Both the position numbers and the translations under genes were made by a program. This document shows, in pieces, positions 7,602 through 29,407 of a stretch of DNA of 33,339 nucleotides (its first letter is position 1; each line of letters starts with the position of its first letter). The notes under the pieces were generated by a model, which made no database searches, was not told the origin of the DNA, and was given only the letters and a program-made list of their open reading frames with translations. Source of the DNA: an uncultured Candidatus Saccharibacteria bacterium (GTDB lineage Bacteria; Patescibacteriota; Minisyncoccia; Phycocordibacterales; WO2-35-19); NCBI GenBank assembly GCA_964558845.1, contig CAZLFM010000003.1, positions 1 to 33,339 of the forward strand, written 5' to 3'.

Positions 7602-7632
7602 GGGCGGACCCGTCCGAACGAATCTGGGCGGA
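7602..7632. repeat. GC-rich hairpin (family copy D) in the infC-rpmI spacer
   Basis: GGGCGG-ac-CCGTCCG-aacgaatc-TGGGCGG. The middle CCGTCCG (7610-7616) can pair with either flanking GGGCGG. The element ends 14 nt before the rpmI ATG. Confidence 0.75.
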
Positions 7633-7645
7633 TAACACAAATATT

Positions 7646-7831
7646 ATGAAGTCGAACAAATCATTTCTAAAACGCATCAAGGTGACCAAAAACGGCAAGC
7701 TTGTTACTCGCAAGATTGGCCAAAACCACTTTAATGCCAAAAACAGAACTCGCACCACTCTTCGCAAAAGAGCTACTGTTTTGATAGAAATGACCAACAA
7801 AAATCGTGGCAGATATCTTAATAACGCGTAA
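7646..7831 (+). CDS. rpmI: 50S ribosomal protein L35
   Basis: 61 aa, basic, with KSNKSFLKRIKVTKNGKL. Canonical infC-rpmI-rplT order. Confidence 0.93.
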   Translation: MKSNKSFLKRIKVTKNGKLVTRKIGQNHFNAKNRTRTTLRKRATVLIEMTNKNRGRYLNNA

Positions 7832-7924
7832 AATACGAAATCCGAAGCATCAAATCCGAAATAAATAAGAATCCATAATTTATTTCGAATTTCGGATTTA
7901 GAATTTAGAATTTTAATTTAAAAT

Positions 7925-8269
7925 ATGGCTAGAGTAAAAAAAGGACAGAACGCGCTAAAAACAAGGCGCAACATACTAAAGCAGGTCAAAGGCTATCGCT
8001 TCGGCCGATCAAAGAAAGAGAAGCAAGCTTATGAGGCTATTTCTCACGCTGGCACTTATGCCTTTGCCCACAGACGCGACAAAAAAACCGACTTTCGTCA
8101 ACTTTGGAACGTTCGCCTCAATTCTGTTTTGAATCAAAACGGTCTTTCCTATTCCAAATTCATCGGCTCTCTCAAAAAAGCCAACGTTGCCCTCAATCGC
8201 AAGATGCTGAGCGAAATTGCTGCGGCTAATCCTTCAACCTTCAAACACATTTTGACCAAGGTCGCCTAA
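7925..8269 (+). CDS. rplT: 50S ribosomal protein L20
   Basis: 114 aa with MARVKKGQNALKTRRNILKQVKGYRFGRSK. Confidence 0.95.
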   Translation: MARVKKGQNALKTRRNILKQVKGYRFGRSKKEKQAYEAISHAGTYAFAHRRDKKTDFRQLWNVRLNSVLNQNGLSYSKFIGSLKKANVALNRKMLSEIAAANPSTFKHILTKVA

Positions 8270-8429
8270 TGAGGCGTATCCCGTAGTAGATTTTGGCTAT
8301 GATTCCTGTGTCATCGTGCTTTAGCACTTAGCCCAAATTCACTACGGGACGTATCCACAGCTCCCCTGTCAAGGTATTGCACTAAAAAATCCTTAAATAT
8401 ATACTTGGCAGTAGGAGGAATTAAAAGGG

Positions 8430-8465
8430 CCCGCCCGCCTCGCAAGCGAGAGCGTTGCGGGCGGG
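8430..8465. repeat. GC-rich hairpin (family copy A) in the hup leader
   Basis: CCCGCCCGC (8430-8438) pairs with GCGGGCGGG (8457-8465), 9 bp. It encloses the mini-hairpin CTCG-caag-CGAG. Confidence 0.8.
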
Positions 8466-8509
8466 AGGAAATTTATAAGCTAATTTACTTGCGAAAGCAG
8501 GTTAAAAAT

Positions 8510-8782
8510 ATGAATAAAGCAGATTTGGCAAATGCAGTCCACGGCCTAATCGGTGGCACCAAGGTGCAAGCCGAAGAAGTTGTAGAGACAATTATTAGAG
8601 AAATCACCAAAACTCTCAAGAGTGGTGGCGAAGTATCAGTAGCCGGCCTTGGTATCTTTTCAACCAAGACAAGGGCCGCTAGAACAGCTCGCAACCCAAG
8701 AACTGGTGAGAGCGTTCAGGTCCCTGCTATGAAGGTGCCTAAGTTCAGAGCTGCAAAGGCTTTGAAAGACGCCGTTAAATAG
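8510..8782 (+). CDS. hup: HU/IHF-family DNA-binding protein
   Basis: 90 aa with MNKADLANAV...GFGIFS-like core, RTARNPRTGESVQVPA arm and PKFRAAKALKDAV. The ORF-track start at 8405 (TTG) merely reads through a GC-rich hairpin. Confidence 0.9.
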   Translation: MNKADLANAVHGLIGGTKVQAEEVVETIIREITKTLKSGGEVSVAGLGIFSTKTRAARTARNPRTGESVQVPAMKVPKFRAAKALKDAVK

Positions 8783-8822
8783 CTTCAGGCTTTTAGCTAA
8801 AAGTTTAAAGTTTTCCACTTAT

Positions 8823-8850
8823 CAAAACACTCCCCTACGGGAGTGTTTTG
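8823..8850. terminator. Bidirectional hairpin between convergent genes
   Basis: CAAAACACTCCC-ctac-GGGAGTGTTTTG with A/T runs on both sides. It sits between the hup (+) and nucleotidyltransferase (-) stops. Confidence 0.6.
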
Positions 8851-8867
8851 ATTTATAAAATCTAAGG

Positions 8868-9614
8868 TTAAGATTCAAAAGTCATTGCCCACTTATCTTT
8901 ACCCTGCCAGCCGTCAAACATATGTCCGTGCCCATTTTCTCTGCCCATTTTTTCAATACCCATAAGCAACTCCTGTTGGGTTTTTAAGTCGGCTGTAGCC
9001 AATACTTGTTCTATTTTTCGCACAAAATCAGTAGGAGACCAAGGTAGATTTTGCAGAGGATACATTTCAAGTTCTTTTTGGACATAGCCAAGGAAAGGTC
9101 GGTGCCTGCCATTGAAACCAAATACCAAAGTCAGGAGGTCCAGCATTGAGTTTACAGCCTCCAAGTGCGCCCCAAAAGGATTGTTGTTGCGAATACATTT
9201 TATTGAACGAAATACTCCATTCACATAACCATCAATCCAATAATCAATAAATTTATTTAGTTTATCGGCCGGAATATACCCCTTTTCTTGAATGAGTTGG
9301 GGCAAATTATCAGTCTTGTCTACTAGTATTTTGCAATGTGTATAGTTATATCTGTCCCAAGTTTCTGGACTATCCCATTCGGCATATTTTTTGAAATCTG
9401 TTAAAGATTGAACGGAGAGGTCTACATTATCAAAACTTCTTTGCTTATACTTTTCGCTTAACACGCTCACCACCTCATCTTTTACAATCATAACCGCATC
9501 ATAGTCAGAATATTCATTGTCAAAACCTTTCCCTCGTGAGCCAACAAGAATGAGCCCGAGAATGTCATCCTGTTCTTTTGCTTCTTTTAATATTTCTTCA
9601 AAATTCTTCTCCAT
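8868..9614 (-). CDS. Nucleotidyltransferase-fold protein (aminoglycoside adenylyltransferase-like architecture)
   Basis: 248 aa. N-terminal NTase signature LVGSRGKG...SDYDAVMIV (GS-x-DxD) followed by a helical C-terminal domain. The substrate is unknown. Confidence 0.55.
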   Translation of the reverse strand: MEKNFEEILKEAKEQDDILGLILVGSRGKGFDNEYSDYDAVMIVKDEVVSVLSEKYKQRSFDNVDLSVQSLTDFKKYAEWDSPETWDRYNYTHCKILVDKTDNLPQLIQEKGYIPADKLNKFIDYWIDGYVNGVFRSIKCIRNNNPFGAHLEAVNSMLDLLTLVFGFNGRHRPFLGYVQKELEMYPLQNLPWSPTDFVRKIEQVLATADLKTQQELLMGIEKMGRENGHGHMFDGWQGKDKWAMTFES

Positions 9615-9707
9615 AAAGTCAGTTTAATCCAAAACCAGCTAAAAATGAAGCTTTGATGTTTTAATTAATTTTAATAGGTTGTATGTGTCCTGAAGAAATC
9701 GAAGTAG

Positions 9708-9778
9708 TGCGGGTAGGGAGAGTCGAACTCCCGTCTGGACATTGGAAGTGTCCCATCCTACCGCTGAACGATACCCGC
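9708..9778 (-). tRNA. tRNA-Gly (UCC)
   Basis: Reverse complement: GCGGGTA-TC-GTTC-AGCGGTA-GGAT-G-GGACA-CTTCCAA-TGTCC-AGAC-GGGAG-TTCGACT-CTCCC-TACCCGC-A. No CCA is encoded. Confidence 0.9.
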
Positions 9779-9791
9779 AAAAACCAGTCTA

Positions 9792-10454
9792 TCATAAAAC
9801 TCTATCAATCCAAGCCAAAATTAACCTATGCAAGTTAACACCAAATCTCTTATCTCTAAAACCTACCAAGGACAGATGGGCAGTCCCAAAAGGAAGTTTG
9901 CCCCTTTTATTAACTTTTTTATTATTTCTACGATCTACTATAGACTTAAGAAACTGACTAATCGGTATACCAGTTTCTTTTGACCAAAAATTCACGCATT
10001 TTTCTTCGTCATTATCCGGATATAGATGGATACGGATTCTTAGGTTTTTTGTTTCGAGCCCACATATCTCCTTCAACCATCTTATGGAAAACTTTATTAT
10101 TTTGGGATCCGCATTGGTAATTCTTGTTGAATCGAAAGATTTTGTACCTTCCCCAATATACACCCCCAAACCAAGCATGAATAAATCTCTTTTTGATAAC
10201 TTACCTATATCTTTTTCGGCTCGTATCTTAGCACTATCAAGACTCTTAACTTTTATCAAGTGTTTCTTGAGCCCAGACGCTGTTCTTGCTTTTCCAATCG
10301 TATCTAGAGTATATTTGTTTGGACTGTAATCTATGTTGGTCAACCACTCACTCAACGTACTTTTTGGAATTTGTGTTAATTTAGAAATATAACTATAAGA
10401 ATAACCCTCTTTTCTCAAGCCCAGAGCCTTTTGTTTTACTTCGTAAACATACAT
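9792..10454 (-). CDS. HTH plus LAGLIDADG-like (single-motif) endonuclease-like protein
   Basis: 220 aa. N-terminal HTH (YSYISKLTQIPKSTLSEW) and a LAGLIDADG-like block LFMLGLGVYIGEGTK. It ends 14 nt upstream of tRNA-Gly(UCC) on the same strand. The call rests on motif recognition only. Confidence 0.5.
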   Translation of the reverse strand: MYVYEVKQKALGLRKEGYSYSYISKLTQIPKSTLSEWLTNIDYSPNKYTLDTIGKARTASGLKKHLIKVKSLDSAKIRAEKDIGKLSKRDLFMLGLGVYIGEGTKSFDSTRITNADPKIIKFSIRWLKEICGLETKNLRIRIHLYPDNDEEKCVNFWSKETGIPISQFLKSIVDRRNNKKVNKRGKLPFGTAHLSLVGFRDKRFGVNLHRLILAWIDRVL

Positions 10455-10524
10455 AAATCGTATACTGGTATTGTACCACTACAGCATGAATTGGATATAC
10501 AAAATATGTGGATAAATAACACAA

Positions 10525-10827
10525 CTACTTAAAGCTGTGGACTCTTTGGGAAACTTTTACCAGAGTTTGAAAATCATCTTCATGGAGAATTTTGTTTTTG
10601 CGTTCAAAGCCACACACCTGGCACTTTTGAAGGATGGACCATTCTCCCCCACTCTCTGAAGCTCCAATCGGCGCCATCATGCCACCACAACTTGAAGCCC
10701 TATCACCCGGATCAATATCCACGTGTTTACTCCAGAGGCACTTTGGGCAGTGATTGGTGTAACCGCGTCCAATTACTATGGTTCCACATTTCTCACAAGT
10801 AAAGTTTTCTACTCTTTTCTTAAACAT
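10525..10827 (-). CDS. RNHCP-domain zinc-ribbon protein
   Basis: 100 aa with CEKCG...YTNHCPKCLWSKHVD...CGGMM...CQVCG, the RNHCP motif plus Cys pairs. Confidence 0.7.
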   Translation of the reverse strand: MFKKRVENFTCEKCGTIVIGRGYTNHCPKCLWSKHVDIDPGDRASSCGGMMAPIGASESGGEWSILQKCQVCGFERKNKILHEDDFQTLVKVSQRVHSFK

Positions 10828-10879
10828 GGCTTATGGTGACAGTAGAATTGGAATTTTCAATTTTTAATTTAAAATTTTC

Positions 10880-10922
10880 AAATTGAAACATTGGAAATTA
10901 AATGAAAATTGAAAATTGTAAA
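10880..10922 (+). repeat. AT-rich 43-nt copy of the pseudopilin gene leader/start region
   Basis: 40 of 43 positions are identical to 23184-23226, including the ATG (10902 versus 23206). It is built of TTGAAAA-like heptads. Confidence 0.8.
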
Positions 10923-10950
10923 CCTGCCCGATGGCAAGGCGGGCTGAAAA

Positions 10951-11400
10951 TTATTTCTGGTGCCGATGCAAATGCGCGGCAATCCCCATCGCCAATCCGA
11001 TAATTGCCAAATTTTTGATTATATATTGACCTTCAAGTGTCGGTATCCAATTTGATTGCCAAGTAACATCAGGCAACATAATGAGTGGCAAAAAGGTGGT
11101 GACCATATGGATTGCCAAGAGAAAGATGGCCACTCTTTCGAATTTTGGCAAAATAAAAGTTATACCAATAACCATCTCAAAAATTCCAAAGAACAGAATA
11201 AATTGTTCAAAAGTCAGAAACGGCAAAGTGCTTTCCATCAAATCTTTGACCAAAGGATTGGCCGGGCTCTCCCCTATCACCTTTAGCAAACCGAACCAAA
11301 AGAAGATAACAAAAACAGCCAGCTTGGCAAAAGGTATGCTAGTAGCCCGAAAAAAGGCAATTATCCAAGAATCAAGTTTGTGAAATAAAGTTCCAATCAT
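10951..11400 (-). CDS. Small polytopic membrane protein (DoxX/YkgB-like)
   Basis: 149 aa with four predicted hydrophobic helices. The family assignment is tentative. Confidence 0.45.
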   Translation of the reverse strand: MIGTLFHKLDSWIIAFFRATSIPFAKLAVFVIFFWFGLLKVIGESPANPLVKDLMESTLPFLTFEQFILFFGIFEMVIGITFILPKFERVAIFLLAIHMVTTFLPLIMLPDVTWQSNWIPTLEGQYIIKNLAIIGLAMGIAAHLHRHQK

Positions 11401-11457
11401 AAAACAATTATACCAAATTTTATTAAAATTATGTTCTATGCTATAGTGGCAAAATTA

Positions 11458-11497
11458 CGGAGCGTAGTACAGTGGTAGTATTGAGTGGTTTACAGGA
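11458..11497 (+). pseudogene. 5' half-copy of tRNA-Pro (no 3' half)
   Basis: CGGAGCGTAGTACAGTGGTAGTAT matches the first 24 nt of the intact tRNA-Pro (CGGGGCGTAGTATAGTGGCAGTAT) with 3 mismatches. No complementary anticodon-stem strand, T-arm or acceptor 3' strand follows. Confidence 0.6.
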
Positions 11498-11526
11498 AAG
11501 AAAATTTAAAACAAAATAGTGATACA

Positions 11527-11597
11527 CGGGGCGTAGTATAGTGGCAGTATATATGGTTTGGGACCATAAGGTCCGAGTTCGATTCTCGGCGCCCCGA
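11527..11597 (+). tRNA. tRNA-Pro (UGG)
   Basis: CGGGGCG-TA-GTAT-AGTGGCA-GTAT-A-TATGG-TTTGGGA-CCATA-AGGT-CCGAG-TTCGATT-CTCGG-CGCCCCG-A. The C1:G72 pair is typical of bacterial tRNA-Pro. Confidence 0.9.
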
Positions 11598-11609
11598 CAA
11601 AGGTAGAAA

Positions 11610-12029
11610 TTACAAAACTAAATTTTCAATTAGCCTAACTTTGGCTATACGTTTTTCCATATCCAAAAAGACACAGACAAGGTCGAACTGCCATTCTGGC
11701 TCTGATTTCCGATATTTTTCCAATAGATAAGTCTGAATGATTCTCGATAGTCTTTTAAGTTTAGAGGGGTGGACGTTGTCCTCGGGCCTATAATTGTTTA
11801 CTTCCTGTTCAAAATGGCCACCAAAACTTCTTCGACTAACAGTCTTCACTTCCACAAAATAAACTTTGCCGTTTTTCTCTGCGACAATGTCCAATTCGCC
11901 CCATTTTTTGCGATAATTCCTATTGACAACAAAAAAGCCTTTCCTCTCAAGATATTTTGCCGCTATGTCTTCTCCCTTCTTCCCTATTTCGTTATTCTTA
12001 GCCATTTTGTCTTTGACTTTTACCCACAT
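11610..12029 (-). CDS. yraN: YraN-family (UPF0102) endonuclease-like protein
   Basis: GKKGEDIAAKYLERKGFFVVNRNYRKKWGELDIVAEKNGKVYFVEVKT. An alternative start is the ATG at 12005. Confidence 0.85.
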   Translation of the reverse strand: MWVKVKDKMAKNNEIGKKGEDIAAKYLERKGFFVVNRNYRKKWGELDIVAEKNGKVYFVEVKTVSRRSFGGHFEQEVNNYRPEDNVHPSKLKRLSRIIQTYLLEKYRKSEPEWQFDLVCVFLDMEKRIAKVRLIENLVL

Positions 12030-12182
12030 TCCACAGAGTTATCCACACTTATCAACAATTCTTTTGCAAAATAAGGCCAATTAGACAACAAAACAATTCT
12101 ACAACTTTTATAAAGGAAAATATATCCCAATGTTTATAAAAGAATTTGTTTATTAAAATAAATATGTTAAATTTAAACGAAT

Positions 12183-12253
12183 GCGGCCATGGTTTAGTGG
12201 TAGAACATATCCTTGCCAAGGATAAGACGGGAGTTCGATTCTCCCTGGCCGCA
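12183..12253 (+). tRNA. tRNA-Gly (GCC)
   Basis: GCGGCCA-TG-GTTT-AGTGGTA-GAAC-A-TATCC-TTGCCAA-GGATA-AGAC-GGGAG-TTCGATT-CTCCC-TGGCCGC-A. Confidence 0.92.
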
Positions 12254-12286
12254 CAGCAAAAAATCGCCGCCGTAGTTCAATGGATA

Positions 12287-12305
12287 CCCGCCCGACTCGC
12301 CTGAC
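12287..12305. repeat. GC-rich arm (left) of hairpin family copy B
   Basis: CCCGCCCGACTCGCCTGAC. CCCGCCC pairs with GGGCGGG (12393-12399) and GCCTGAC pairs with GTCAGGC (12386-12392). Confidence 0.8.
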
Positions 12306-12377
12306 GCCTTTATAGTTCAATGGATAGAACAATCCCGTCCTAAGGGATAGATGTAGGTTCGATTCCTACTAAAGGCG
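12306..12377 (+). tRNA. tRNA-Arg (CCU)
   Basis: GCCTTTA-TA-GTTC-AATGGATA-GAAC-A-ATCCC-GTCCTAA-GGGAT-AGAT-GTAGG-TTCGATT-CCTAC-TAAAGGC-G. All stems are fully paired. Confidence 0.88.
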
Positions 12378-12380
12378 CAA

Positions 12381-12399
12381 GACGAGTCAGGCGGGCGGG
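12381..12399. repeat. GC-rich arm (right) of hairpin family copy B
   Basis: GACGAGTCAGGCGGGCGGG, complementary to 12287-12305 with a 5-nt bulge on the left arm. Confidence 0.8.
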
Positions 12400-12494
12400 G
12401 AACAATCCCGTCCTAACGTCTAGATACAGGTCCGATTCCTGTCGGTGGCACAATATTTATGCACCAAATTTTTGGTGTGTTATTATGGCAATAT

Positions 12495-12566
12495 GCTCCC
12501 GTGGTGAAATGGATATCATGCGTGCCTTCGAAGCACTTGTTGGGGGTTCGAATCCCTCCGGGAGCG
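12495..12566 (+). tRNA. tRNA-Arg (UCG)
   Basis: GCTCCCG-TG-GTGA-AATGGATA-TCAT-G-CGTGC-CTTCGAA-GCACT-TGTT-GGGGG-TTCGAAT-CCCTC-CGGGAGC-G. There is one C:U mismatch at 27:43. Confidence 0.85.
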
Positions 12567-12571
12567 CAAAG

Positions 12572-12604
12572 CGTAAAAATCTTAACTGCTTAAGATTTTT
12601 GAGA
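12572..12604 (+). terminator. Hairpin with U-tract after the tRNA array (possible attenuator before cca)
   Basis: AAAAATCTTAA-ctgc-TTAAGATTTTT, nested inside GCGCAAAG...CTTTGCGC. Further hairpins follow: TGTTTTTTC-agca-GAAAAAACA, and GTCAGG...CCTGAC enclosing AATTTGC...GCAAATT. Confidence 0.4.
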
Positions 12605-12715
12605 CTTTGCGCTGGACGGAAGCATGTTTTTTCAGCAGAAAAAACAGCTGAGTCAGGGTCGGGAAAATTTGCGAGTGGCGACGAGCAAATTATTCCTGAC
12701 CACAAAGCGAAATCC

Positions 12716-14203
12716 ATGAAAAACAACGCTCAAATAGAAAAATTTAATATACCAGAAGAGGTTTCTCGTGTAACAAAGGCGCTAAAAGATGCTAATTTTG
12801 AAGCATTTCTTGTTGGTGGCTGTGTCCGTGACCTATTTATGGGCAGAAAACCAAAGGATTGGGACATAACAACCAATGCCACCCCCGAACAAATAATCCC
12901 CTTATTTTCAAAGACTTTTTACGAAAACAACTTTGGCACCGTAGCGGTTGTCAATGAAGAAACAAAAGACGAGAGTTTGAAGATAATAGAAATAACACCA
13001 TATAGGCTTGAAAGCTCGTATTCTGACCACAGACGACCGAACGAGGTGTCTTTCAGCACAGACATCCTTGATGACCTCAAAAGACGTGATTTTACAATAA
13101 ACGCAATCGCTTACGAACCAGACACAGCCGAAATCATAGATCCATTCTTTGGAGTTGCCGATCTTGCCAGAAGAACCATAAAAGCCGTGGGTAATCCAAA
13201 AGATAGGTTTTTTGAGGATGGACTACGTATTTTAAGAGCTGTTAGGTTACACGTGGAACTAGACTTCCCTATTGATCCAGAAACAGAAAGGGCGATTGCC
13301 GATAATAGCCATATAATAAAGGAGATTTCAAAAGAAAGAGTTCGAGACGAGCTAATCAAAATAATCATGTCGGATAGACCAATGAATGGCTTTCTAATTC
13401 TCAAAAAACTCGGCCTATTGCAATACATAATACCAAAACTCGAAGAAGCCATTGGAATAGAACAAAAAGGTGTTCATATTTTTGATGTTTGGACGCATCT
13501 TTTAAAGAGTTTGCAACATTCCGCAGACAAGAAATATCCGTTACACGTGAGACTTTCTGCCCTATTTCACGATATAGCAAAGCCAGAAACAAGGAGATTT
13601 GACCAAAATACCAAAGAATATAGCTTTTATGGACACGAAGTGGTGGGTTCACGTGTAACAAAGAAGATATTGGAGGATCTAAAGTTTTCACGTGAAACAA
13701 TTGATAAGGTGGTCAAGCTGGTTAGGTGGCATATGTTCTTCTCTGACACAGAGCAAATAACCCTTTCGGCTGTAAGGAGGCTTTTGGTAAACGTCGGGAA
13801 AGAGAATATCTGGGATTTGATAGATGTAAGGATGTGCGACCGAATTGGCACAGGAAGACCAAAGGAAAACCCTTATCGCTTGCGCAAATATCAGGCAATG
13901 ATAGACGAGGCTATGAGAGATCCTATATCAGTAGCGATGTTGAAAACAAATGGCCAACGAATAATGGACGTACTAAAAACAACCCCTGGACCACAAATAG
14001 GCTACATATTGAATGCCCTCCTTGAAGAAGTTTTGGAGGATCCGTCCTTGAACACCGAGGAGTATTTGGATAAAAGGACACTTGAATTATCAAAAATGTC
14101 TCTTAATGAACTTAGGGTTTTAGCCGAAAAAGGTAAGTCAAAAAAAGAAGAATTAGAGGAAGGGGAGATAAAGAAAATCAGAAGCAAACACCACGTGGAA
14201 TAG
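12716..14203 (+). CDS. cca: CCA-adding tRNA nucleotidyltransferase with HD domain
   Basis: 495 aa. Head-domain motif LVGGCVRDLFMGRKPKDWDITT and RRDFTINA, with C-terminal HD (LFHDIAKP). I chose the ATG at 12716. The ORF-track start at 12485 reads through tRNA-Arg(UCG). Confidence 0.9.
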   Translation: MKNNAQIEKFNIPEEVSRVTKALKDANFEAFLVGGCVRDLFMGRKPKDWDITTNATPEQIIPLFSKTFYENNFGTVAVVNEETKDESLKIIEITPYRLESSYSDHRRPNEVSFSTDILDDLKRRDFTINAIAYEPDTAEIIDPFFGVADLARRTIKAVGNPKDRFFEDGLRILRAVRLHVELDFPIDPETERAIADNSHIIKEISKERVRDELIKIIMSDRPMNGFLILKKLGLLQYIIPKLEEAIGIEQKGVHIFDVWTHLLKSLQHSADKKYPLHVRLSALFHDIAKPETRRFDQNTKEYSFYGHEVVGSRVTKKILEDLKFSRETIDKVVKLVRWHMFFSDTEQITLSAVRRLLVNVGKENIWDLIDVRMCDRIGTGRPKENPYRLRKYQAMIDEAMRDPISVAMLKTNGQRIMDVLKTTPGPQIGYILNALLEEVLEDPSLNTEEYLDKRTLELSKMSLNELRVLAEKGKSKKEELEEGEIKKIRSKHHVE

Positions 14204-14451
14204 GGGAGCGACCAGAGATATCCACATAATGTCCTTTACATATTTTATAAAAGACATAAAATGTTTTCAGACGCCGATAATTTTTTACAAAACAATCGGC
14301 AATTGGTTATTTGGAAATTAGACGTCTATCGAAAGAAATTTTGGTTAGACAAGAGAGAAAAGTTATATATATCTTCACTCATAAATTTTATAATTGAGAT
14401 ATCGAGCTTGTCTCTTGGGTACACCGGCTTCTAACTGAAATTTGCTTTTAT

Positions 14452-14589
14452 CCCGGCTCCGCTTTTGCTCGTAAACACTTGTGCGCAAAAGAGGGGCTGG
14501 GAACTCAAGTTCTTTTTTGCCCTCTCTTGTTTGAGGGTCTAAAACCCCCTCTGTCTCGCGAATTCCTCCACCGCGTCTCTGGGGGTTTT
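14452..14589 (+). other. Block of four consecutive stem-loops in a 460-nt intergenic region
   Basis: (I) CCCGGCTCCGCTTTTGC (14452-14468) pairs with GCAAAAGAGGGGCTGGG (14485-14501): 16 of 17 pairs including two G:U. (II) GAACT-ca-AGTTC plus TTTTTT (14501-14518). (III) GCCCTC...GAGGGT (14519-14538). (IV) AAAACCCCC (14541-14549) pairs with GGGGGTTTT (14581-14589). Confidence 0.5.
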
Positions 14590-14663
14590 GTTATACACAA
14601 AATTTATTTCTATTTTCACCATTTCAAACTAGAATAGGATTATTATTTATAATTTTTAAAAAT

Positions 14664-14882: not shown

Positions 14883-14900
14883 CAAATAAAATCTATTAAA

Positions 14901-21956: not shown

Positions 21957-23165
21957 ATGCCACTTTATAAATTCAAAACCATAAATAGCGAGGGCAAGGA
22001 GATTGAAGATACAAAAGAATTTCCCGACAAAGGCTCTTTGTATGCCTTTGTGCGCCGAACCGGCGACACCATAGTCTCTGCCGAAGAGACGAGTGGCAAG
22101 AAGAGTAAAATAAAATTCTTCTCATTAGCAAGAAAAATCAAACCAACCGAGCTGATAACCTTCGCCAACAATTTGGCGGTAATGACCGAGGCCGGACTTG
22201 CGGTCTCAAGAGCTCTGGCCATAATGATCAAGCAGGCCAAAAACAAACGCTTTATTGCTATTTTGGAAGACATAAGCGCTTCGATCAACCAAGGCGAGAC
22301 TCTCTCGCGAGCCCTCGAAAAACACAGCGACGTATTTTCAAACATCTTTATTTCTATGGTGGCCGCTGGCGAAGAATCGGGCAAATTGGCTTATTCGTTA
22401 CGAACAATTGCCGCCCAACTTGAAAAATCCAACACTCTAACCAAAAAGATAAAGGGCGCGATGATTTATCCTTCGGTTATTATTTCTTTGATGGTCGTAA
22501 TCGGCATTGTCCTTATGGTTTATATGGTGCCGACCCTGACTGCAACTTTTCTCGGGCTCAATATAGAATTACCACTACCAACCAGGATTATTATCGCGAT
22601 CAGCGACTTTATGCGAGAAAATATTATTTTGGTTATTCTCGGACTCGCCGCTTTAATATTTGGAATAATTACTTTCTTAAAAACACAGCGAGGCGCTCGT
22701 CTTTCTGATTGGGCCGTGCTTCATATGCCAATCTTCGGCACCATGTCTAAAGAACTAAACGCCGCCAGAACCACGCGCACCCTGGCTTCGTTGGTTTCAT
22801 CTGGAGTGGATATAGTCGAGGCCTTATCAATAACCAGCAACGTCTTACAAAATTCTTATTTCAAAGAGGTTGTGAACGAATCAGCAAAAAAAGTCGAAGT
22901 CGGAGAACTACTTTCGACGACTCTGAGCAACAATCTCTATCCAATATTTGTGAGCGAAATGCTTTCGGTTGGTGAAGAGACGGGCAAAATGACCGATATG
23001 CTAAACAATGTCGCCACTTATTACGAAGGCGAAATCGACCAAAAAACCAAAGACCTCTCTACCATCATAGAACCATTCTTGATGATTCTAATCGGTATTG
23101 CTGTTGGTGCCTTTGCAATAGCAATGCTTCTGCCTACATATTCTTTGGTTGATGCAATACAATAA
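21957..23165 (+). CDS. pilC: Type IV pilus platform protein PilC (GspF family)
   Basis: 402 aa with two GspF repeats and three TM segments. Conserved ...GE.SG.L...L blocks are present (AAGEESGKLAYSL, VGEETGKMTDML). Confidence 0.92.
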   Translation: MPLYKFKTINSEGKEIEDTKEFPDKGSLYAFVRRTGDTIVSAEETSGKKSKIKFFSLARKIKPTELITFANNLAVMTEAGLAVSRALAIMIKQAKNKRFIAILEDISASINQGETLSRALEKHSDVFSNIFISMVAAGEESGKLAYSLRTIAAQLEKSNTLTKKIKGAMIYPSVIISLMVVIGIVLMVYMVPTLTATFLGLNIELPLPTRIIIAISDFMRENIILVILGLAALIFGIITFLKTQRGARLSDWAVLHMPIFGTMSKELNAARTTRTLASLVSSGVDIVEALSITSNVLQNSYFKEVVNESAKKVEVGELLSTTLSNNLYPIFVSEMLSVGEETGKMTDMLNNVATYYEGEIDQKTKDLSTIIEPFLMILIGIAVGAFAIAMLLPTYSLVDAIQ

Positions 23166-23183
23166 AGACGTCAGGGGTTTTGA

Positions 23184-23226
23184 AAATTGAAACATTGAAA
23201 ATTTAATGAAAATTGAAAATTATAAA
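23184..23226 (+). repeat. AT-rich 43-nt heptad-like repeat spanning the pseudopilin start codon
   Basis: Partner of 10880-10922 (40 of 43 identical). Locally it is a run of TTGAAAA-like units from about 23180 to 23236. Confidence 0.8.
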
Positions 23227-25017
23227 TTGAAAATTGCATCTCGGGGTTTTTCTTTGGTTGAAGTTATATTTAGCGCGGCCATCTTTGCAATTATTGCCGT
23301 ATCGGTTTATAGCGGATACGCAAATTTGACTAGACTGATTTCGGCTTCAAGAGACAAGGTGATTGGAGCCGACTTACTAAACGAACAATTCGAAATTGTT
23401 CGCAACCTGCCATACCAAAATATTGGTCTCTTACAAGGCATTCCCTCAGGTGTGCTTTCTGCGACTTCGACAATAACAAGAGATGGTAGAAGCTTTTTTG
23501 TAACCAGAACAGTGCGCAACATCGACAATCCTTTTGACGGCACACTTGGGGGCAACCCAAACGATTTGTCTCCGGCCGACTACAAATTAGTAGAAGTATC
23601 GATTGTTTGCGATTCTTGTAGAAATTTCTCCGAAATGAACGCCTCTTCTTATTTTGCACCCAAAAACCTCGAAACAGCCTCGACCAACGGCGCCCTCTTC
23701 ATAAGAGTTTTCGACGCCAACGGTATACCAGTTCCTCAAGCCGAAATCGAAATTACCAACAGTAGCGCCGGTATTTATATCGAAGAAACAACCGACAACA
23801 ACGGCAGTCTACAAATAGTCGACGCTCCGCCTGGTATCAATGCCTATCGCATAATAGCGAGCAAACCAGGGTATACAACCGATCGCACATATCCAGCTTC
23901 GGTATCAAACCCAAACCCAGTCAAACCCGACGCCACCGTACTACTACAACAAGTGACCCAAATATCTTTTATTATCGATAAAGTTAGCACCATAAATGTA
24001 TTTTCTAAAAATTTACAATGCGGCATAGTTGGAAATACACCATTCAATATAGCTGGGGCAAAACTTATTGGCACCAATCCAAATGTAATAAAGTACAGTG
24101 GAAGCTTTAGCACCGATGCTGCTGGCCAGAAAACTTTGAACAATATCGAGTGGGACACATTTGTACTGACTCCGGGCGGCACCGAAAATTTGATTGGTAT
24201 AAATCCAGCTTCTCCATTTTCGGTTTTGCCCGATTCGGTCCAAAACGTGGATATGATTTTTGGCGCTGGTGCTCCAAACAACTTGCTCGTTACGGTCAAA
24301 GACGGGGCAACTGGTCTACCTCTATCCGAAGTTCAGCTGACCTTAACCCAGGGATCATTTGTAGCAAACCAGGTTACCGGCAGGGGATATATGGAACAAA
24401 CGGACTGGTCGGGCGGGGCCGGACAGACAAATTATACGAACGACACAATGTATTATTCAGATGATGGCAACATCGACACCTTGTCACCAGATGGAGAATT
24501 AAAACTCAAAAAAATACTCGGGGATTATGCATTATCTGGGTCTCTAACCTCATCAATTTTTGACACCGGCACATCCTCAAATTTCACCAACATCGTCTGG
24601 TCTCCAACCGACCAACCTCCACAGACTGGGAGCAACAGCGTCCGATTCCAGATTGCAACGTCCCCAGACAACACCGCAACCACGACTTGGCAATACTTTG
24701 GTCCAGATGGAACCTCAAGCACCTTCTTTGATGTATCCAACAACAACATAAACCCGATTCATAACGGTCATAGATATTTTAGATACAAGATATTTTTGAG
24801 CACTCTAGCAACCAACAAAACACCAAACATCGCCAGTGTCGCTGCGACTTACACATCGGATTGTATTCCTTCTGGGCAATCCTTATTCTCGACCCTTTCA
24901 CACGGCAACCACCGTTTGTTATTGCAGAAGACCGGATACCAGACGCAAGAATTTGATGTAAACATAATCACCAACGACGAATGGCAGAGTGTGGACGCAA
25001 ATATGTTGCCCGAATAA
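23206..25017 (+). CDS. Large prepilin-like protein (603 aa) with carboxypeptidase-regulatory-like beta-sandwich domain(s)
   Basis: Leader MKIENYKLKIASRG/FSLVEVIFSAAIFAIIAV (G-1, F+1, E+5). Internal IRVFDANGIPV...ETTDNNGSLQI...YRIIASKPGYTT resembles CarboxypepD_reg. The C-terminal LLLQKTGYQTQEFDV suggests a second copy. Confidence 0.75.
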   Translation: MKIENYKLKIASRGFSLVEVIFSAAIFAIIAVSVYSGYANLTRLISASRDKVIGADLLNEQFEIVRNLPYQNIGLLQGIPSGVLSATSTITRDGRSFFVTRTVRNIDNPFDGTLGGNPNDLSPADYKLVEVSIVCDSCRNFSEMNASSYFAPKNLETASTNGALFIRVFDANGIPVPQAEIEITNSSAGIYIEETTDNNGSLQIVDAPPGINAYRIIASKPGYTTDRTYPASVSNPNPVKPDATVLLQQVTQISFIIDKVSTINVFSKNLQCGIVGNTPFNIAGAKLIGTNPNVIKYSGSFSTDAAGQKTLNNIEWDTFVLTPGGTENLIGINPASPFSVLPDSVQNVDMIFGAGAPNNLLVTVKDGATGLPLSEVQLTLTQGSFVANQVTGRGYMEQTDWSGGAGQTNYTNDTMYYSDDGNIDTLSPDGELKLKKILGDYALSGSLTSSIFDTGTSSNFTNIVWSPTDQPPQTGSNSVRFQIATSPDNTATTTWQYFGPDGTSSTFFDVSNNNINPIHNGHRYFRYKIFLSTLATNKTPNIASVAATYTSDCIPSGQSLFSTLSHGNHRLLLQKTGYQTQEFDVNIITNDEWQSVDANMLPE

Positions 25018-25021
25018 TCTT

Positions 25022-25639
25022 ATGCACAAAAAAAATAATCAGATAAATAAAGGGGTTAGCTTGGCAGAGATGGTGGTAGTCATAGCGATTTTCGGCATAA
25101 TTTCTGTTGCTGTGGCTAATTTCGGAAGCGAGATATTCAATTTCAATTCTACCGCTGGATCCAATTTGACCGCCCAATCAGAGGGCCGAAGAGTGCTCAA
25201 AACAATGGTCAAAGAACTGCGCAGTGTTTCGCCGTCTAGTGTTGGATCTTATGCCTTGAACCAAGTTGCTACGTCTAGCATTATTTTTTATAGCGACATC
25301 GATGATGACGGACTCAAAGAAAGAATTCGTTATTTTTTGCAAGACACAAACTTAAAAAGGGGGGTGGTCAAACCCTCCGGCAACCCATTGAGTTACAATT
25401 TAGCAAATGAAAATCTAATCACTCTTGCAACTGGCGTAGCAAATGGCGCCACCCCAATATTTGAATACTTTGACCAAAATTACACCGGTAGTTCTTCGGC
25501 GCTTCTAGAACCCGTTCAAGCAACTTCTGTCAGATTGGTTAAAATAAATCTTATTTTAGACAAAGATCCAAACAAAGCTGGCGGGATAATAAACGTAACC
25601 AGTCAAGTGACACTCCGAAATTTGAAAGACAATCTATAA
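25022..25639 (+). CDS. Prepilin-like minor pilin (205 aa)
   Basis: MHKKNNQINKG/VSLAEMVVVIAIFGIISVAV (G-1, E+5). I chose the ATG at 25022, 4 nt after the preceding stop. Confidence 0.75.
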   Translation: MHKKNNQINKGVSLAEMVVVIAIFGIISVAVANFGSEIFNFNSTAGSNLTAQSEGRRVLKTMVKELRSVSPSSVGSYALNQVATSSIIFYSDIDDDGLKERIRYFLQDTNLKRGVVKPSGNPLSYNLANENLITLATGVANGATPIFEYFDQNYTGSSSALLEPVQATSVRLVKINLILDKDPNKAGGIINVTSQVTLRNLKDNL

Positions 25640-25643
25640 AATA

Positions 25644-27107
25644 ATGCTTAAGATTTTAAAAAACAAAAAAGGTCAGCTTTTGATACCAATCATTATGTTT
25701 TCGGCTATTGCCCTGGTCATAACCGGCGGGATAATGAATTGGACCAAAATAACCATCGAGGCCAACAGACAAATGCTTACCAGAGAGCGGGCGATTTATC
25801 TCGCCGAATCAGGGATAGACTATTATAGATGGCACCTCGCTCACGCCCAAGCTGATTACCAAGATGGCACTGGAGCAGACGGGCCATACATCCACAATGT
25901 TTTCGATAAAGATGGCAACATCGCTGGTCAGTTTAGACTAAACATAACTCCGCCACCAATTGGCTCAACCAAGGTGATTATCGAATCAACTGGGATACCG
26001 GCAAGCACAACCATCGAGAGAACTATCCGTGTCGAGATGGCCATACCTTCACTTGCCAAATACGCAGTCGCCGCCAATGATGTAATGCGTTTTGGTGAAG
26101 GCACAGAGGTTTTTGGTCCGATACACTCTAATTTGGGCATCCGTTTTGATGGTCTAGCCCACAACATAGTCACAAGTGCAGTTGCAAGCTATAACGACCC
26201 TGATTCAGACGATTGCAACAACAACAATTCTTTTGGCGTACACACTTGTAAAAATCCGGCCGACCCATCTCCGCCTGCACAAGTGCCAAGCAGGCCAGAC
26301 GTTTTTGAAGTTGGTCGACAATTCCCAGTTCCACAAATAGACTTCTTGGGATTAACCAACGATTTGGCCACAATAAAATCCGAAGCCCAGAGTTCTGGCA
26401 GATACTTTGCACAATCAGGTAGACAAGGCTATCAAATAATTTTTCAAACCAATAATACTTTCAATTTATATCGAGTAAACTCACAAACAAACCCGGGCCT
26501 TTTCTGTTTCAACTCTCAAAATCAAAGTGGTTGGGCTACGTGGAGCATCAACAGCAAAACACTGCTTGGTAATTATGAAATACCAGAAAACGGACTTATT
26601 TTTGTAGAAGACAACCTTTGGGTTGAGGGCCAAATCGATGGTTCGAGAGCTACTGTGGTAGCTGGCCGCTTTCCAGATAATCCGCAAAATAGACCTGGCA
26701 TTGTGGTCAACAACAATTTACTGTACTCAAACTATGACGGCAGCGATGTGCTTGCCCTAATTTCTCAGGGTAACATAAATATCGGCTTAAATTCTTCAAA
26801 CACCCTAAGAATTGATTCTGCCCTCATCGCCCAAAACGGTAGGGTTGGCAGACACTATTATAGTTCTTCGTGTGGATCAAATTATACTCGTTCTTCTATA
26901 ACACTCTACGGAATGATTGCCACCTATCAGCGCTACGGATTTGCTTACACGGGCAATAATTTCAATTGTGGTGGTAGTATTGGTAATATCGGAAGCGGTT
27001 ATTGCTCTCGTGTTTTGAATTATGACGCCAATTTGCTCTATGGCCCACCGCCAAGTTTCCCTCTGACATCGGATCAGTACGAGATCCTTTCCTGGCAGGA
27101 AATATAG
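25644..27107 (+). CDS. PilX-like or pilus-associated protein with N-terminal anchor (487 aa)
   Basis: KKG/QLLIPIIMFSAIALVITGG hydrophobic N-terminus without E+5. Large Asn/Gly/Ser-rich extracellular part. Last gene of the pilus block. Confidence 0.6.
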   Translation: MLKILKNKKGQLLIPIIMFSAIALVITGGIMNWTKITIEANRQMLTRERAIYLAESGIDYYRWHLAHAQADYQDGTGADGPYIHNVFDKDGNIAGQFRLNITPPPIGSTKVIIESTGIPASTTIERTIRVEMAIPSLAKYAVAANDVMRFGEGTEVFGPIHSNLGIRFDGLAHNIVTSAVASYNDPDSDDCNNNNSFGVHTCKNPADPSPPAQVPSRPDVFEVGRQFPVPQIDFLGLTNDLATIKSEAQSSGRYFAQSGRQGYQIIFQTNNTFNLYRVNSQTNPGLFCFNSQNQSGWATWSINSKTLLGNYEIPENGLIFVEDNLWVEGQIDGSRATVVAGRFPDNPQNRPGIVVNNNLLYSNYDGSDVLALISQGNINIGLNSSNTLRIDSALIAQNGRVGRHYYSSSCGSNYTRSSITLYGMIATYQRYGFAYTGNNFNCGGSIGNIGSGYCSRVLNYDANLLYGPPPSFPLTSDQYEILSWQEI

Positions 27108-27113
27108 GATATA

Positions 27114-27902
27114 ATGGTAGGAATGAAAAAGCGCAACTTAATTGTGGCAAATTGGAAGATGAACCCAAGCTCGCTTTTGGAAGCCAAGGGTCTGTTTTCT
27201 ACTACGAAGAAAGTTGCGAGCACCCTCAAGAATACCGACGTGGTAATTTGTCCACCTTTTGTCTTTTTGGAAAGCTTGGCTAAAACCACAAGGCCCAAAA
27301 ATCTAACCCTTGGTGCCCAAAACATATCAAGCGAAAGAAAAGGGGCTTTTACCGGAGAAATTAGCGGTGAAATGGTAAGAAAGCTCGAAGGGCGCTACGT
27401 TATAATTGGCCACTCGGAAAGAAGAAGCTCTGTTTTTGGCGTTGGCGAAACAGACAAAATTGTAAACGCAAAAATGTTGGTGGCTTTGGAGTCTGGCTTA
27501 ATACCAATACTTTGTGTTGGGGAGAAAGAGAGAGACGGCGATGCTTCTTATCTTTCATTTATCAAAGAACAATTGAGAGCTGGCCTTTTAAACCTATCCA
27601 AGAAAGACCTAGTAGGAATAATAGTCGCCTACGAGCCAATTTGGTCAATCGGTAAATCATACAAAGAAACGATGAGCCCGACCGATATCCACGAAATGAG
27701 TTTGTTTATAAAAAAATCTATTGGCGAAATTTATGGCAGAGATATTGGTAATAGTGCCAAAGTGCTTTATGGTGGCTCGGTAGAAAAAGAGAACACCGAA
27801 AACATAATGCGCTACGGCGACGTTTATGGACTCCTTGTAGGACATTCTTCTTTGATAGCCGAGGAATTTGCCAATATTCTAAAATTAGCCGATATAAAAT
27901 AA
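27114..27902 (+). CDS. tpiA: Triosephosphate isomerase
   Basis: 262 aa with VANWKMN, IIGHSERR, VAYEPIWSIG and YGGSV. An alternative start is the ATG at 27123. Confidence 0.93.
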   Translation: MVGMKKRNLIVANWKMNPSSLLEAKGLFSTTKKVASTLKNTDVVICPPFVFLESLAKTTRPKNLTLGAQNISSERKGAFTGEISGEMVRKLEGRYVIIGHSERRSSVFGVGETDKIVNAKMLVALESGLIPILCVGEKERDGDASYLSFIKEQLRAGLLNLSKKDLVGIIVAYEPIWSIGKSYKETMSPTDIHEMSLFIKKSIGEIYGRDIGNSAKVLYGGSVEKENTENIMRYGDVYGLLVGHSSLIAEEFANILKLADIK

Positions 27903-27916
27903 TTCAAAAAACTTCA

Positions 27917-28939
27917 ATGAGATCGATAAGAGAAGCCGAGATAATAAAAGGAACCAAGGTACTAATCAGAGTCGACTGGAATGTCCCCATACAAGACTGC
28001 CAAGTTTTGGATACATCAAGAATCGAAGCTTCATTAGAAACAATAAATTTTGTCTTAGAGAGGGAAGGGAAAGTTATACTGATGAGCCACCTCGGCGATG
28101 GCACTGATTCTCTTGGCATTGTGGCCGAAGAAGCAAGAAAATTTTTCCCAAATATCAGTTTCAAATTTGTAAGCGACCCTTGGAATTCAAGCTCCGATAG
28201 TGGCAAAAATGGCCTCGACTATTTGGAAAGTGGCGGCATTGCCTTGATTGAAAACCTAAGATTTTGGGCCGAAAAAGAAAATGATCCAAAATTTGCTGAG
28301 CAACTGGCAATGTTTGGCGATATTTATGTCAATGAAGCCTTTTCGGTTTCGCACCGAGCCCACACTTCAATTGTTGGTGTGCCCAAACTTCTACCAAGTT
28401 TTGCTGGATTTCACTTTTTAGAAGAATATGAGAATCTTTCCAAAGCCTTTGACCCAAAACATCCATTCCTTTTTATTTTGGGTGGGGCCAAGCTTGAAAC
28501 AAAGTTGCCTTTGGTCAATGAATTTTTGAATATCGCTGACAATATTTTTATCGGCGGAGCGCTTGCTAAACCCGCTTCAGAAACCGACCTCGCCCAAAAT
28601 CCAAAAATTATTCTGCCCAAAGGTAATTTGTGCGCTTTGGACACCAACCCCGAAACTCTTGAGATGTTGCAGGAGAAAATAAATGGGGCCAAGTTTATTT
28701 TGTGGAACGGCCCGCTTGGCAAATACGAAGACGGTTATGACCAGGGCACAAAAGCTCTAGCCAAAATACTGAGCGAGTGCGAGGCTGAAGTAATAGTCGG
28801 CGGGGGCGACACAGAAGAGGTGATTGACGTTTTAGATATCGAAGATAAATTCAATTGGGTCTCGCTTGCCGGTGGCGCCATGCTCGACTTTTTGGCCAAG
28901 CGCACCCTGCCAGGGATTGAAGCGTTGGACGAAAGCTAA
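27917..28939 (+). CDS. pgk: Phosphoglycerate kinase (short form, 340 aa)
   Basis: IRVDWNVP, SRIEASL.TI, VILMSHLG, ENLRFW..E, YVNEAFSVSHRAHTS, LWNGPLG, GGGDT and GGGAMLDFL. Confidence 0.9.
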   Translation: MRSIREAEIIKGTKVLIRVDWNVPIQDCQVLDTSRIEASLETINFVLEREGKVILMSHLGDGTDSLGIVAEEARKFFPNISFKFVSDPWNSSSDSGKNGLDYLESGGIALIENLRFWAEKENDPKFAEQLAMFGDIYVNEAFSVSHRAHTSIVGVPKLLPSFAGFHFLEEYENLSKAFDPKHPFLFILGGAKLETKLPLVNEFLNIADNIFIGGALAKPASETDLAQNPKIILPKGNLCALDTNPETLEMLQEKINGAKFILWNGPLGKYEDGYDQGTKALAKILSECEAEVIVGGGDTEEVIDVLDIEDKFNWVSLAGGAMLDFLAKRTLPGIEALDES

Positions 28940-29301
28940 GAGCTTAGAGCTTCTAAAATTTTATTTTGGTTAGTTTCAAAATCTTTTTTAACTCCTTTGA
29001 CTTTGTGATCGGGTATGAGCCAGATGTGAGCGTGGGGGACTTCTTCGCCGACAATTTTAGATATAATCCAATCGGTTTCAAAAGCTTTCATCTGCGCTTT
29101 GGCAACCTTTTGTGCAACTTCAAAATACTCTCCGGCATTTGGCACGTCCCAAACCCATCTATAGTGAGTCTTTGGCACAACCAGTGTATGGCCAGGCGAT
29201 TCGGGATTGATGTCCAAAAAGGCCAAGAAGTTTTCGTCCTCATAGACTTTGTAACTTGGTATTTCGCCATTCACTATTTTGCAAAAGATGCAGTTTTCCA
29301 T
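28936..29301 (-). CDS. HIT-family nucleotide hydrolase
   Basis: 121 aa with CIFCKIV.GEIP and the histidine triad HAHIWLIP. Its stop overlaps the pgk stop by 4 nt (convergent). Confidence 0.88.
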   Translation of the reverse strand: MENCIFCKIVNGEIPSYKVYEDENFLAFLDINPESPGHTLVVPKTHYRWVWDVPNAGEYFEVAQKVAKAQMKAFETDWIISKIVGEEVPHAHIWLIPDHKVKGVKKDFETNQNKILEALSS

Positions 29302-29323
29302 CGCTCTATTATATCACCCCCCG

Positions 29324-29350
29324 CCCCCTCTTACATTAAGAGGGGGTTTT
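29324..29350 (+). terminator. Terminator-like hairpin in the recJ leader
   Basis: CCCCCTCTT-acatt-AAGAGGGGG followed by TTTT. No plus-strand gene ends immediately upstream. Confidence 0.4.
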
Positions 29351-29355
29351 CGGCT

Positions 29356-29407
29356 CCCTTCCCCTTCGCAACCCGTCCGACTGGGTCATCCGGGCGGAGG
29401 GGAAGGG
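29356..29407. repeat. GC-rich nested hairpin (family copy C)
   Basis: Outer helix CCCTTCCCCT (29356-29365) / AGGGGAAGGG (29398-29407). Inner helix CCGTCCG (29373-29379) / CGGGCGG (29391-29397). The 10-mer ACCCGTCCGA is identical to 7608-7617. Confidence 0.8.

Follow-up and report, generated by a model that had tools for sequence, protein, structure and literature searches.

Several families of short palindromic repeats described in other organisms resemble the GC-rich hairpins considered here, which lie in a contig of an uncultured Candidatus Saccharibacteria bacterium (assembly GCA_964558845.1, contig CAZLFM010000003.1; the whole analysed stretch of 33,339 nucleotides is called the window). 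Rickettsia palindromic elements (RPEs) are about 100–150 bp long and are repeatedly found in frame in unrelated housekeeping genes (Ogata et al. 2000, as reviewed in PMC10969869 and PMC1779305); they also occupy non-coding DNA and RNA genes, and no transposase is known for them. Repetitive extragenic palindromes (REPs) and bacterial interspersed mosaic elements, served by REP-associated tyrosine transposases (RAYTs; Y1/HUH), are extragenic, carry a GTAG or CGTC tag, involve single-strand hairpins and leave no target-site duplication (PMC3733652). Two organellar families, yeast mitochondrial GC clusters and Magnusiomyces 'byp' elements, are short mobile GC-rich palindromes that are recombination hot spots and can nest; GC clusters are mostly intergenic but lie in frame in var1, many of them have AG/TAG terminal repeats taken as target duplications, and byps are skipped by the ribosome (PMC8811140).

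The window hairpins are probably copies of very small (about 24–45 nt) GC-rich palindromic insertion elements with a patchy distribution in Patescibacteria, and we infer that they are best regarded as selfish DNA resembling RPEs rather than as regulatory signals. Like RPEs, they are dispersed palindromes in reduced genomes, lie in frame in unrelated housekeeping genes, where they would be read through as an extra peptide (here judged from the frames), and also occupy non-coding DNA and RNA genes. The present elements differ in size (24–45 nt against 100–150 bp) and host group and have no evident sequence relation to RPEs, homology to which was not searched directly; they also have a form that clamps a tRNA gene as cargo, and they nest in each other's loops. 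They share with REPs the nature of 20–40-nt GC-rich imperfect palindromes in many dispersed copies with no target-site duplication, but they begin with CCCG, lack the GTAG/CGTC tag and often lie inside genes. The terminal inverted repeats recall MITEs, the miniature transposable elements with inverted repeats, from which the missing target-site duplication sets them apart. Yeast GC clusters are likewise GC-rich palindromes in a genome of lower GC content, but they are organellar and many have the terminal repeats taken as target duplications, which are absent here; unlike byps, the present elements keep the reading frame of their host genes (PMC8811140). No description of such elements or of nested tRNAs in the Candidate Phyla Radiation/Patescibacteria was found in the literature.

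The source genome, G000, is a draft of 614 kb in 55 contigs (C1–C55), with 43% GC and an estimated completeness of 93%; the window is C3:1–33339. It was compared with 61 relatives, among them the same-genus genomes G001, G002 and G003 (congeners), with a phylum-wide sample of 301 genomes and with an order-level sample of 401 genomes. tRNA genes were called with ARAGORN and Rfam, host proteins were assigned with Pfam, and hairpin stability was expressed as a fold z-score against shuffled sequence. The original prediction placed four hairpins in the window, at 7602–7632 (copy D), 8430–8465 (copy A), 12287–12305 with 12381–12399 (the arms of copy B) and 29356–29407 (copy C), and all four are present there, as are the words said to be shared, the 10-mer ACCCGTCCGA in copies C and D and the arms CCCGCCCG/CGGGCGGG in copies A and B. 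Copies A, C and D, with the second hairpin around copy C, are placed as follows:

7608–7631, plus strand: core of copy D, ACCCGTCCGAACGAATCTGGGCGG, short subfamily, in the infC–rpmI spacer.
8430–8465, plus strand: copy A, CCCGCCCGCCTCGCAAGCGAGAGCGTTGCGGGCGGG (36 nt), in the 5′ leader of hup, whose ATG is at 8510.
29371–29397, plus strand: core of copy C, ACCCGTCCGACTGGGTCATCCGGGCGG, short subfamily, between a minus-strand HIT gene and recJ.
29349–29420, plus strand: outer C/T-rich hairpin, CTCCCTTCCCCT...AGGGGAAGGG, a second palindromic family with copy C in its apical loop.

The words in common span 6–10 nt, and length and interior vary among the window copies, so that accidental GC-rich inverted repeats might be suspected in a genome of 43% GC. 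A search with CCCGCCCG-N(6–140)-CGGGCGGG, however, found 11 exact pairs across G000, while 23 of 27 other arm permutations of the same composition gave none and the remaining four gave 1–3, which we take to be the same elements caught out of register; the count lies far above what composition would give. The reversed pattern had no match in G000 and one among the 61 relatives. The short-type pattern of copies C and D occurs four times in G000 and in seven other relatives, against none for its control. Identical 30-, 36- and 45-mers also recur within and between genomes, and the likelihood of a chance origin is negligible.

With up to two mismatches allowed in one arm, G000 contains 17 main-type copies which, with the four of the short type, make 21. 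Main-type elements end in 8–9-nt perfect inverted repeats, with CCCGCCCG and CGGGCGGG as their termini, and measure 30, 36, 39, 43–45 or 113 nt; the extended variants resemble the shorter ones with an additional hairpin in the apical loop. The short type, ACCCGTCCGA...GGGCGG, spans about 24–28 nt. The four hairpins had been taken as one family: copies A and B do belong together in the 30–45-nt type, whereas copies C and D form a separate subfamily. They had also been described as non-coding and confined to intergenic leaders, which is true of the four window copies but not of the genome, where nine of the 21 copies (eight main-type and one short-type) lie inside long open reading frames (ORFs). 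As the coding density of G000 is about 89% on a crude ORF map, non-coding DNA holds more of the copies than its share, yet by no means all of them.

The comparison of filled with empty orthologous sites shows that the elements, as traced in aligned genomes, are insertions with exact ends and no duplication into sites that are empty in close relatives. In the GAPDH gene the filled site reads AAG AAG|CCCGCCCG...CGGGCGGG|GAT TGG (36 nt), against the empty AAG AAG|GAT TGG of G001; the insertion has exact boundaries, falls between codons and duplicates no target. The 12 added residues are absent in all 29 relatives searched, including three congeners at 76–88% identity, and in 80 further orthologues; the closest GAPDH genes to that of G000 are from Candidatus Zambryskibacteria and other Paceibacterota/Parcubacteria metagenome-assembled genomes (MAGs), which places its organism in the Patescibacteria. 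A 15-residue insert in EF-P is absent in five relatives, and the TatD insert is absent in three, with a different short insert at the same site in two others. The tRNA-Arg(CCT) gene that surrounds copy B is uninterrupted in G001, and the insert there is exactly 113 nt, from CCCGCCCG to CGGGCGGG. No MITE-like target-site duplication is seen at the GAPDH and tRNA-Arg sites, where filled and empty versions share at most one ambiguous G. The flanks carry no fixed tag; the only target motif, read in coding orientation, is a weakly favoured ...|GA directly behind the element.

The coding copies of G000 are located as follows (main-type copies with length and encoded peptide); the hosts TatD, EF-P, GyrA, LeuRS on C17 and the C25 gene were checked with Pfam, and SecA, LeuRS on C32, the PEP-utilising enzyme and GAPDH were identified by reading their translations:

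C1:17639: SecA, 45 nt, PARNDSLDSSSVSGG.
C4:17671: TatD, 45 nt, PARNASLGSASVAGG.
C4:19846–19890: EF-P, 45 nt, PARNASLGSASVAGG.
C17:11070: LeuRS, 30 nt, PARLAVVAGG.
C32:233: LeuRS, 36 nt, PARLDGESDSGG.
C24:4581: PEP-utilising enzyme, 39 nt, PARHASGEAMADG.
C41:2390–2425: GAPDH, 36 nt, PARPNESGHSGG.
C49:335: C-terminal domain of GyrA, 36 nt, PARDASQREAGG.
C25: TraD/TrwB-like gene, a short-type copy in frame.

All eight main-type coding copies have a length that is a multiple of three and lie in one phase, CCC GCC CG., read as Pro-Ala-Arg (PAR) ... Gly-Gly; were the phase random, such uniformity would have a chance of about 5e-4. The inserts thus add 10–15 residues of the form PAR...GG with the reading frame kept, and the translations run across them as ...VKKPARPNESGHSGGDWK... 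in GAPDH and ...AKPARNASLGSASVAGGGEYW... in EF-P. The AlphaFold model of GAPDH (mean pLDDT 85) places the insert within the only long low-confidence coil, residues 206–233, which we take to be the S-loop. A second variable insertion site of this protein (SPHSALATR / SKSHFAEASR / ERQFSASPNNGIER) was observed at residues ~70–80, also with low model confidence, and it is occupied in several lineages (orthologues L044, L046, L047, L052, L058 and L060). In five other genomes 27 of 33 sites are in long ORFs, and 19 of those 27 share the same frame.

Beyond G000, the exact 36-mer of copy A turns up in no fewer than seven genomes from five or more other genera, with as many as five copies in a single genome and mostly inside ORFs. 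In ten different ORFs its strand is invariably the coding one and its phase constant, giving PARLASESVAGG; this 36-mer has no stop codon in any of its six frames, so the bias results either from selection acting on the peptide or from insertion that favours one strand and phase. Copies with exact arms were found in 23 of the 61 relatives, with none in G001 and G002, two in G003 and nine, the most in any relative, in G024, against about 21 copies in G000. Across the phylum-wide sample they occur in 32 of 301 genomes, where the reversed control matches about a dozen genomes, mostly once each. A 39–41-nt variant, CCCGCCCGCATTCCTCCCCAGACCCCTCCTGCGGGCGGG, was seen to be identical in many genomes, as inverted pairs 1.8–5.9 kb apart (G018:C25:1309 and 3146; G011:C1:85879 and 91780) or at contig ends (G497 and G621); it may bound a larger repeated unit. 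A phage vehicle was considered and rejected, the copy-A 36-mer being missing from the viral contig set searched. Of the three explanations offered in the original prediction, it is the one of REP- or MITE-like repeats that these data favour, the elements being scattered palindromes, variably present among congeners and patchy over the phylum, while the readings as leaders, attenuators or translational control elements find no support.

Those readings would make the hairpins cis-regulatory 5′-leader RNAs, namely attenuators, ribosomal-protein operators, translational control elements or mRNA-stabilising stem-loops. All four window copies do stand upstream of plus-strand genes or RNAs, and the case is best for copy A. 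This copy folds at −27.7 kcal/mol (z −3.1) into a perfect 9-bp GC stem that holds a small inner hairpin, and it ends 44 nt before the hup ATG. Copy A lies between the two GGAGG boxes of the hup leader, which also has a promoter-like core that is conserved; between the boxes many genera have some hairpin, differing from genus to genus; the same element is found there in G004, a degenerate look-alike in G001 and none in G002, G003 and G006. Copy A, the only window copy at a place where hairpins of some kind are common across genera, may have gained a secondary use as a stem-loop in the hup leader.

The sites of copies C and D are of another kind. Copy D is part of an AT-rich composite repeat of ~64 nt (about 7580–7643), which recurs inside an ORF at C25:4758–4818 and in G001, but not in the orthologous infC–rpmI spacers of 22 relatives; these spacers measure 11–178 nt and are of unrelated sequence (13 nt in G002, 36 nt in G001). 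Since the spacer is wholly unconserved among relatives, an L20 operator or attenuator at this place was rejected. The alternative pairing once proposed between copy D and an upstream GGGCGG block was not confirmed; read from the sequence, it would leave a loop of 1–2 nt. The 27-mer of copy C is identical in G023 and near-identical in G006, G022, G049 and G033; neither it nor the outer C/T-rich hairpin is found in the recJ leaders of G001, G002 and G003, which contain other palindromes. The recJ leader of G002 was seen to carry an inserted small ORF (G002:C17, ~6925–7457, locus L186), by eye of the DUF559 endonuclease type, with C/T-rich palindromes on both flanks. Copy C is a fold of modest stability (z −1.65), and copy D is not notably stable, scoring no better than its shuffled controls (z −0.9). 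Nearly half of the copies in G000 and most of those in other genomes lie inside ORFs and, by their frames, are read through, and no Rfam family matches the hairpins: only tRNA and tmRNA reached the gathering score, and the matches at E ≤ 1 were chance hits to miRNA and snoRNA hairpin models. A cis-regulatory function is largely refuted for copies B, C and D, and is quite unlikely as an explanation of the hairpins.

Intrinsic terminators, or bidirectional terminator-like stem-loops, would also have GC-rich stems, and some copies are located at gene ends: 10 nt after tRNA-Glu on C9, after a gene at C4:27123 and between convergent genes on C30. The sequences directly 3′ of copy A (AGGAAATTT), copy C (TTGGGGATG) and copy D (TAACACAA) contain no T-run, however, and for this reason the terminator reading was rejected. 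Copies also stand upstream of genes and inside essential ORFs, and ordinary T-run terminator hairpins stand separately beside some of them; this explanation is very improbable.

Spacers and housekeeping protein genes are not the only landing sites of the elements, which are also found in the apical loops of other palindromes and in the loops of tRNA genes. A second palindromic element holds copy C in its loop, and this nested pair recurs at C30:6740–6810. At C4:3029–3072 and C29:6429–6471 an element is located in the D-loop (GCTC^AGTTGGTAG) of truncated 5′ fragments of tRNA-Val, 15–86 nt upstream of the intact tRNA-Val(TAC) and tRNA-Val(GAC) genes.

Copy B represents a cargo form, in which the arms enclose a whole tRNA gene inside another one:

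12266–12286, plus strand: 5′ piece of the outer tRNA-Arg(CCT), acceptor strand and D arm up to GGATA.
12287–12305, plus strand: left arm of copy B, CCCGCCCGACTCGCCTGAC.
12306–12378, plus strand: cargo, a complete tRNA-Arg(CCT) (ARAGORN; Rfam tRNA, 67.3 bits).
12379–12399, plus strand: right arm of copy B, (CA)AGACGAGTCAGGCGGGCGGG.
12400–12450, plus strand: 3′ piece of the outer tRNA-Arg(CCT), acceptor and T stems intact, anticodon stem broken.

The first 14 nt of the left arm are those of the 30-nt solo element CCCGCCCGACTCGCAGTCGTTGCGGGCGGG, and on metagenome contigs the right arm is conserved beyond the search pattern. The cargo is the only intact tRNA-Arg(CCT) found in G000 and matches the un-nested tRNA-Arg(CCT) of G003. 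The outer gene is of the G001 type, with the acceptor GCCGCCG/CGGTGGC, and is split in the D-loop after GGATA; the first 17 nt of its 3′ piece (GAACAATCCCGTCCTAA), compared with G001 and G003, are of the inner type. With inner tRNA sequence now in its 5′ strand, the outer anticodon stem is broken (ATCCC against CGTCT); it pairs at only two of five positions, and ARAGORN makes no call after in-silico excision. The outer resident tRNA-Arg(CCT) is, by its predicted pairing, a relic with a broken anticodon stem. We read the inner-type sequence of its 3′ flank as gene conversion, which would fit the co-conversion that accompanies homing.

Similar arrangements exist elsewhere. In G023, of another genus, related arms clamp a tRNA-Thr(CGT) at a D-loop-like site of a degenerate tRNA-like sequence; in G281 and G085, of other families, arms close to those of copy B clamp a tRNA-Arg(TCT) that lies within another tRNA-Arg(TCT), at its anticodon loop (CTTC^TAA), the two allele types being nested in opposite order in the two genomes. 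A scan of metagenomes for copy-B arms yielded 35 sites on 34 contigs; ARAGORN called a cargo at 34 of the 35, always a tRNA-Arg (CCT, TCT, CCG, TCG or GCG), and on inspection of the flanks each cargo was within a second tRNA-Arg or what is left of one, the anticodons of the two agreeing in nearly every case.

These nested genes bear on the possibility that RNA processing takes the elements out as intervening sequences (hairpin-defined bacterial introns), so that the proteins would lack the insert and both the outer and the inner tRNA-Arg would mature. After in-silico excision, the outer genes are intact at about eight of 37 loci (the 35 sites, G000 and G281); at least eight outer tRNAs keep a perfectly paired acceptor stem, each of different sequence, some have further small hairpins at about position 37/38, and the arms are highly conserved around different cargos. 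Many of the remaining outer genes, on the other hand, are truncated or riddled with further hairpins, and that of the window has the broken anticodon stem. The lengths and frames of the coding inserts are preserved, which removal would not require: even a 38-nt variant, read as RPPRIRESVAGG, leaves the host frame open for 70–500 codons on either side, a compensation indicating that the inserts are constrained to be translated. Neither the ligase RtcB (PF01139) nor an EndA-type endonuclease (PF01974) was found in the 93% complete G000, in searches to which control genomes respond; known enzymes are thus unlikely to splice the outer tRNA, and archaeal bulge-helix-bulge tRNA introns differ in this respect, as well as in the non-functional look of the window's outer tRNA after excision. 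Removal at the RNA level is an unlikely explanation overall.

Some integrative elements, like some homing endonuclease genes, interrupt a tRNA gene or host gene and yet supply a replacement part. Copy B is similar in that it breaks a tRNA-Arg, supplies a predicted working tRNA-Arg of the same anticodon and has a converted outer 3′ flank. It differs in its unit of ~113 nt with no integrase or nuclease, in carrying a complete gene rather than a 3′ fragment, and in that the cargo form inserts in the D-loop or anticodon loop, not in the usual 3′ attachment region. Tentatively, the CCCGCCCG...CGGGCGGG termini might mark one mobile system comprising solo 30–45-nt hairpins and a loaded form that, from a D-loop or anticodon loop, kills the resident gene for the same tRNA and replaces it in one step; the conversion of the outer 3′ flank could then be the footprint of homing by double-strand-break repair. 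We know of no bacterial counterpart of a self-rescuing, gene-replacing element of this kind.

In the preferred reading as small selfish insertion elements, the copies would move as DNA, probably as single-stranded hairpins that a trans-acting enzyme cuts and joins; a single-strand hairpin mechanism is what the lack of target duplication and the nesting in hairpin loops point to. Selection would then retain the harmless insertions, those in spacers, in surface loops in the one tolerated frame, and in a tRNA gene replaced by the cargo.

As in REP/RAYT systems, a hairpin-flanked RAYT-like ORF is present in G000. This Y1 (IS200-like) ORF at C6:8954–9643 (229 aa; 21.7 bits, below the Pfam cut-off) is the single one of its kind in the genome, and it has a different hairpin, TCCTAAGGTCTCGCCTTAGGA, on both sides, the classical REP–RAYT layout for another repeat family; similar ORFs of 215–250 aa number up to ten per genome in relatives. 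RAYT/Y1 was rejected as the mobiliser on account of this one weak ORF with another hairpin family and of copy numbers that do not follow the elements. Two nuclease genes were noted besides, a small GIY-YIG ORF (C35:183–389, 59.7 bits) about 60 nt from tRNA-Thr(TGT), and a UPF0102 gene (window 11610–12029) that adjoins the tRNA cluster. No long element with the same ends was noticed in G000, where a systematic search for such a parent insertion sequence was not made.

Several points weigh against the interpretation as a mobile family. No mobilising enzyme was identified in G000, and across the 61 relatives the counts of Y1-like ORFs do not track those of the elements. Clustering of the ORFs neighbouring the cargo form (~38 loci) gave no dominant or strongly recurring gene, the RmuC-like gene being present at ten loci and a small GIY-YIG protein at six. 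Copy-B arms with no cargo were found in none of the 401 genomes of the order, so that the link between solo and cargo forms rests on the termini they have in common, 14 nt at the left end and 9 nt at the right. Strong constraint rather than recent spread could account for the identical 36-mers of different genera, translation of the inserts is a step deduced from the preserved frames, and every genome used is a MAG draft.

Other palindromic families accompany the elements in the window and its genome. The one next to copy C is located as follows:

29313–29350, plus strand: further palindromic family, CCCCCTCTTAnnTTAAGAGGGGG with a flanking GC-rich box (fold z −4.85).

Its copies are found on C8, C17, C32, C40 and C55, and those at C17:11256–11313 and C32:359–416 lie in frame in LeuRS, read as PPL(N/T)(L/V)RGGAE.SEAGV. 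LeuRS has four palindromic insertions in all, two of the CCCGCCCG family and two of the CACCCCCGCC...CCCCCTCTTAAnTTAAGAGGGGG family. A long imperfect palindrome just after rplT (window 8275–8362, CCCGTAGTAGATTTTGGCT...AGCCCAAATTCACTACGGG) is another dispersed palindromic element, whose family fills the infC–rpmI spacer in G003 and G004. The rpmI–rplT spacer (window 7832–7924) contains an AT-rich palindromic repeat, AAATCCGAAAT...ATTTCGGATTT, with copies on C5, C6, C7, C12, C21, C22 and C27 and about a dozen in G011. Among the other RNA genes of the window, a tRNA-Ile with a genomic TAT anticodon is located at 75–148, and a tRNA-Arg(TCG) at 12495–12567 is overlapped by the ORF 12485–14203; the start of this CCA-adding enzyme must be later, and its Pfam match begins in the part from 12725.

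Patescibacteria have some of the smallest bacterial genomes, which are usually called streamlined. Despite genome reduction, essential genes such as those of GAPDH, EF-P, SecA, LeuRS and GyrA appear to tolerate fresh insertions of 10–15 residues of selfish DNA, and many 'lineage-specific loops' of Patescibacteria proteins may be repeat insertions rather than adaptations. Annotation is affected as well: tRNAs appear split, and leaders and small ORFs are falsely called. Few known mobile-looking units are as small as these elements, and their cargo form ties the family to the replacement of a tRNA gene from within, which would be a new route to indispensability for a selfish element.

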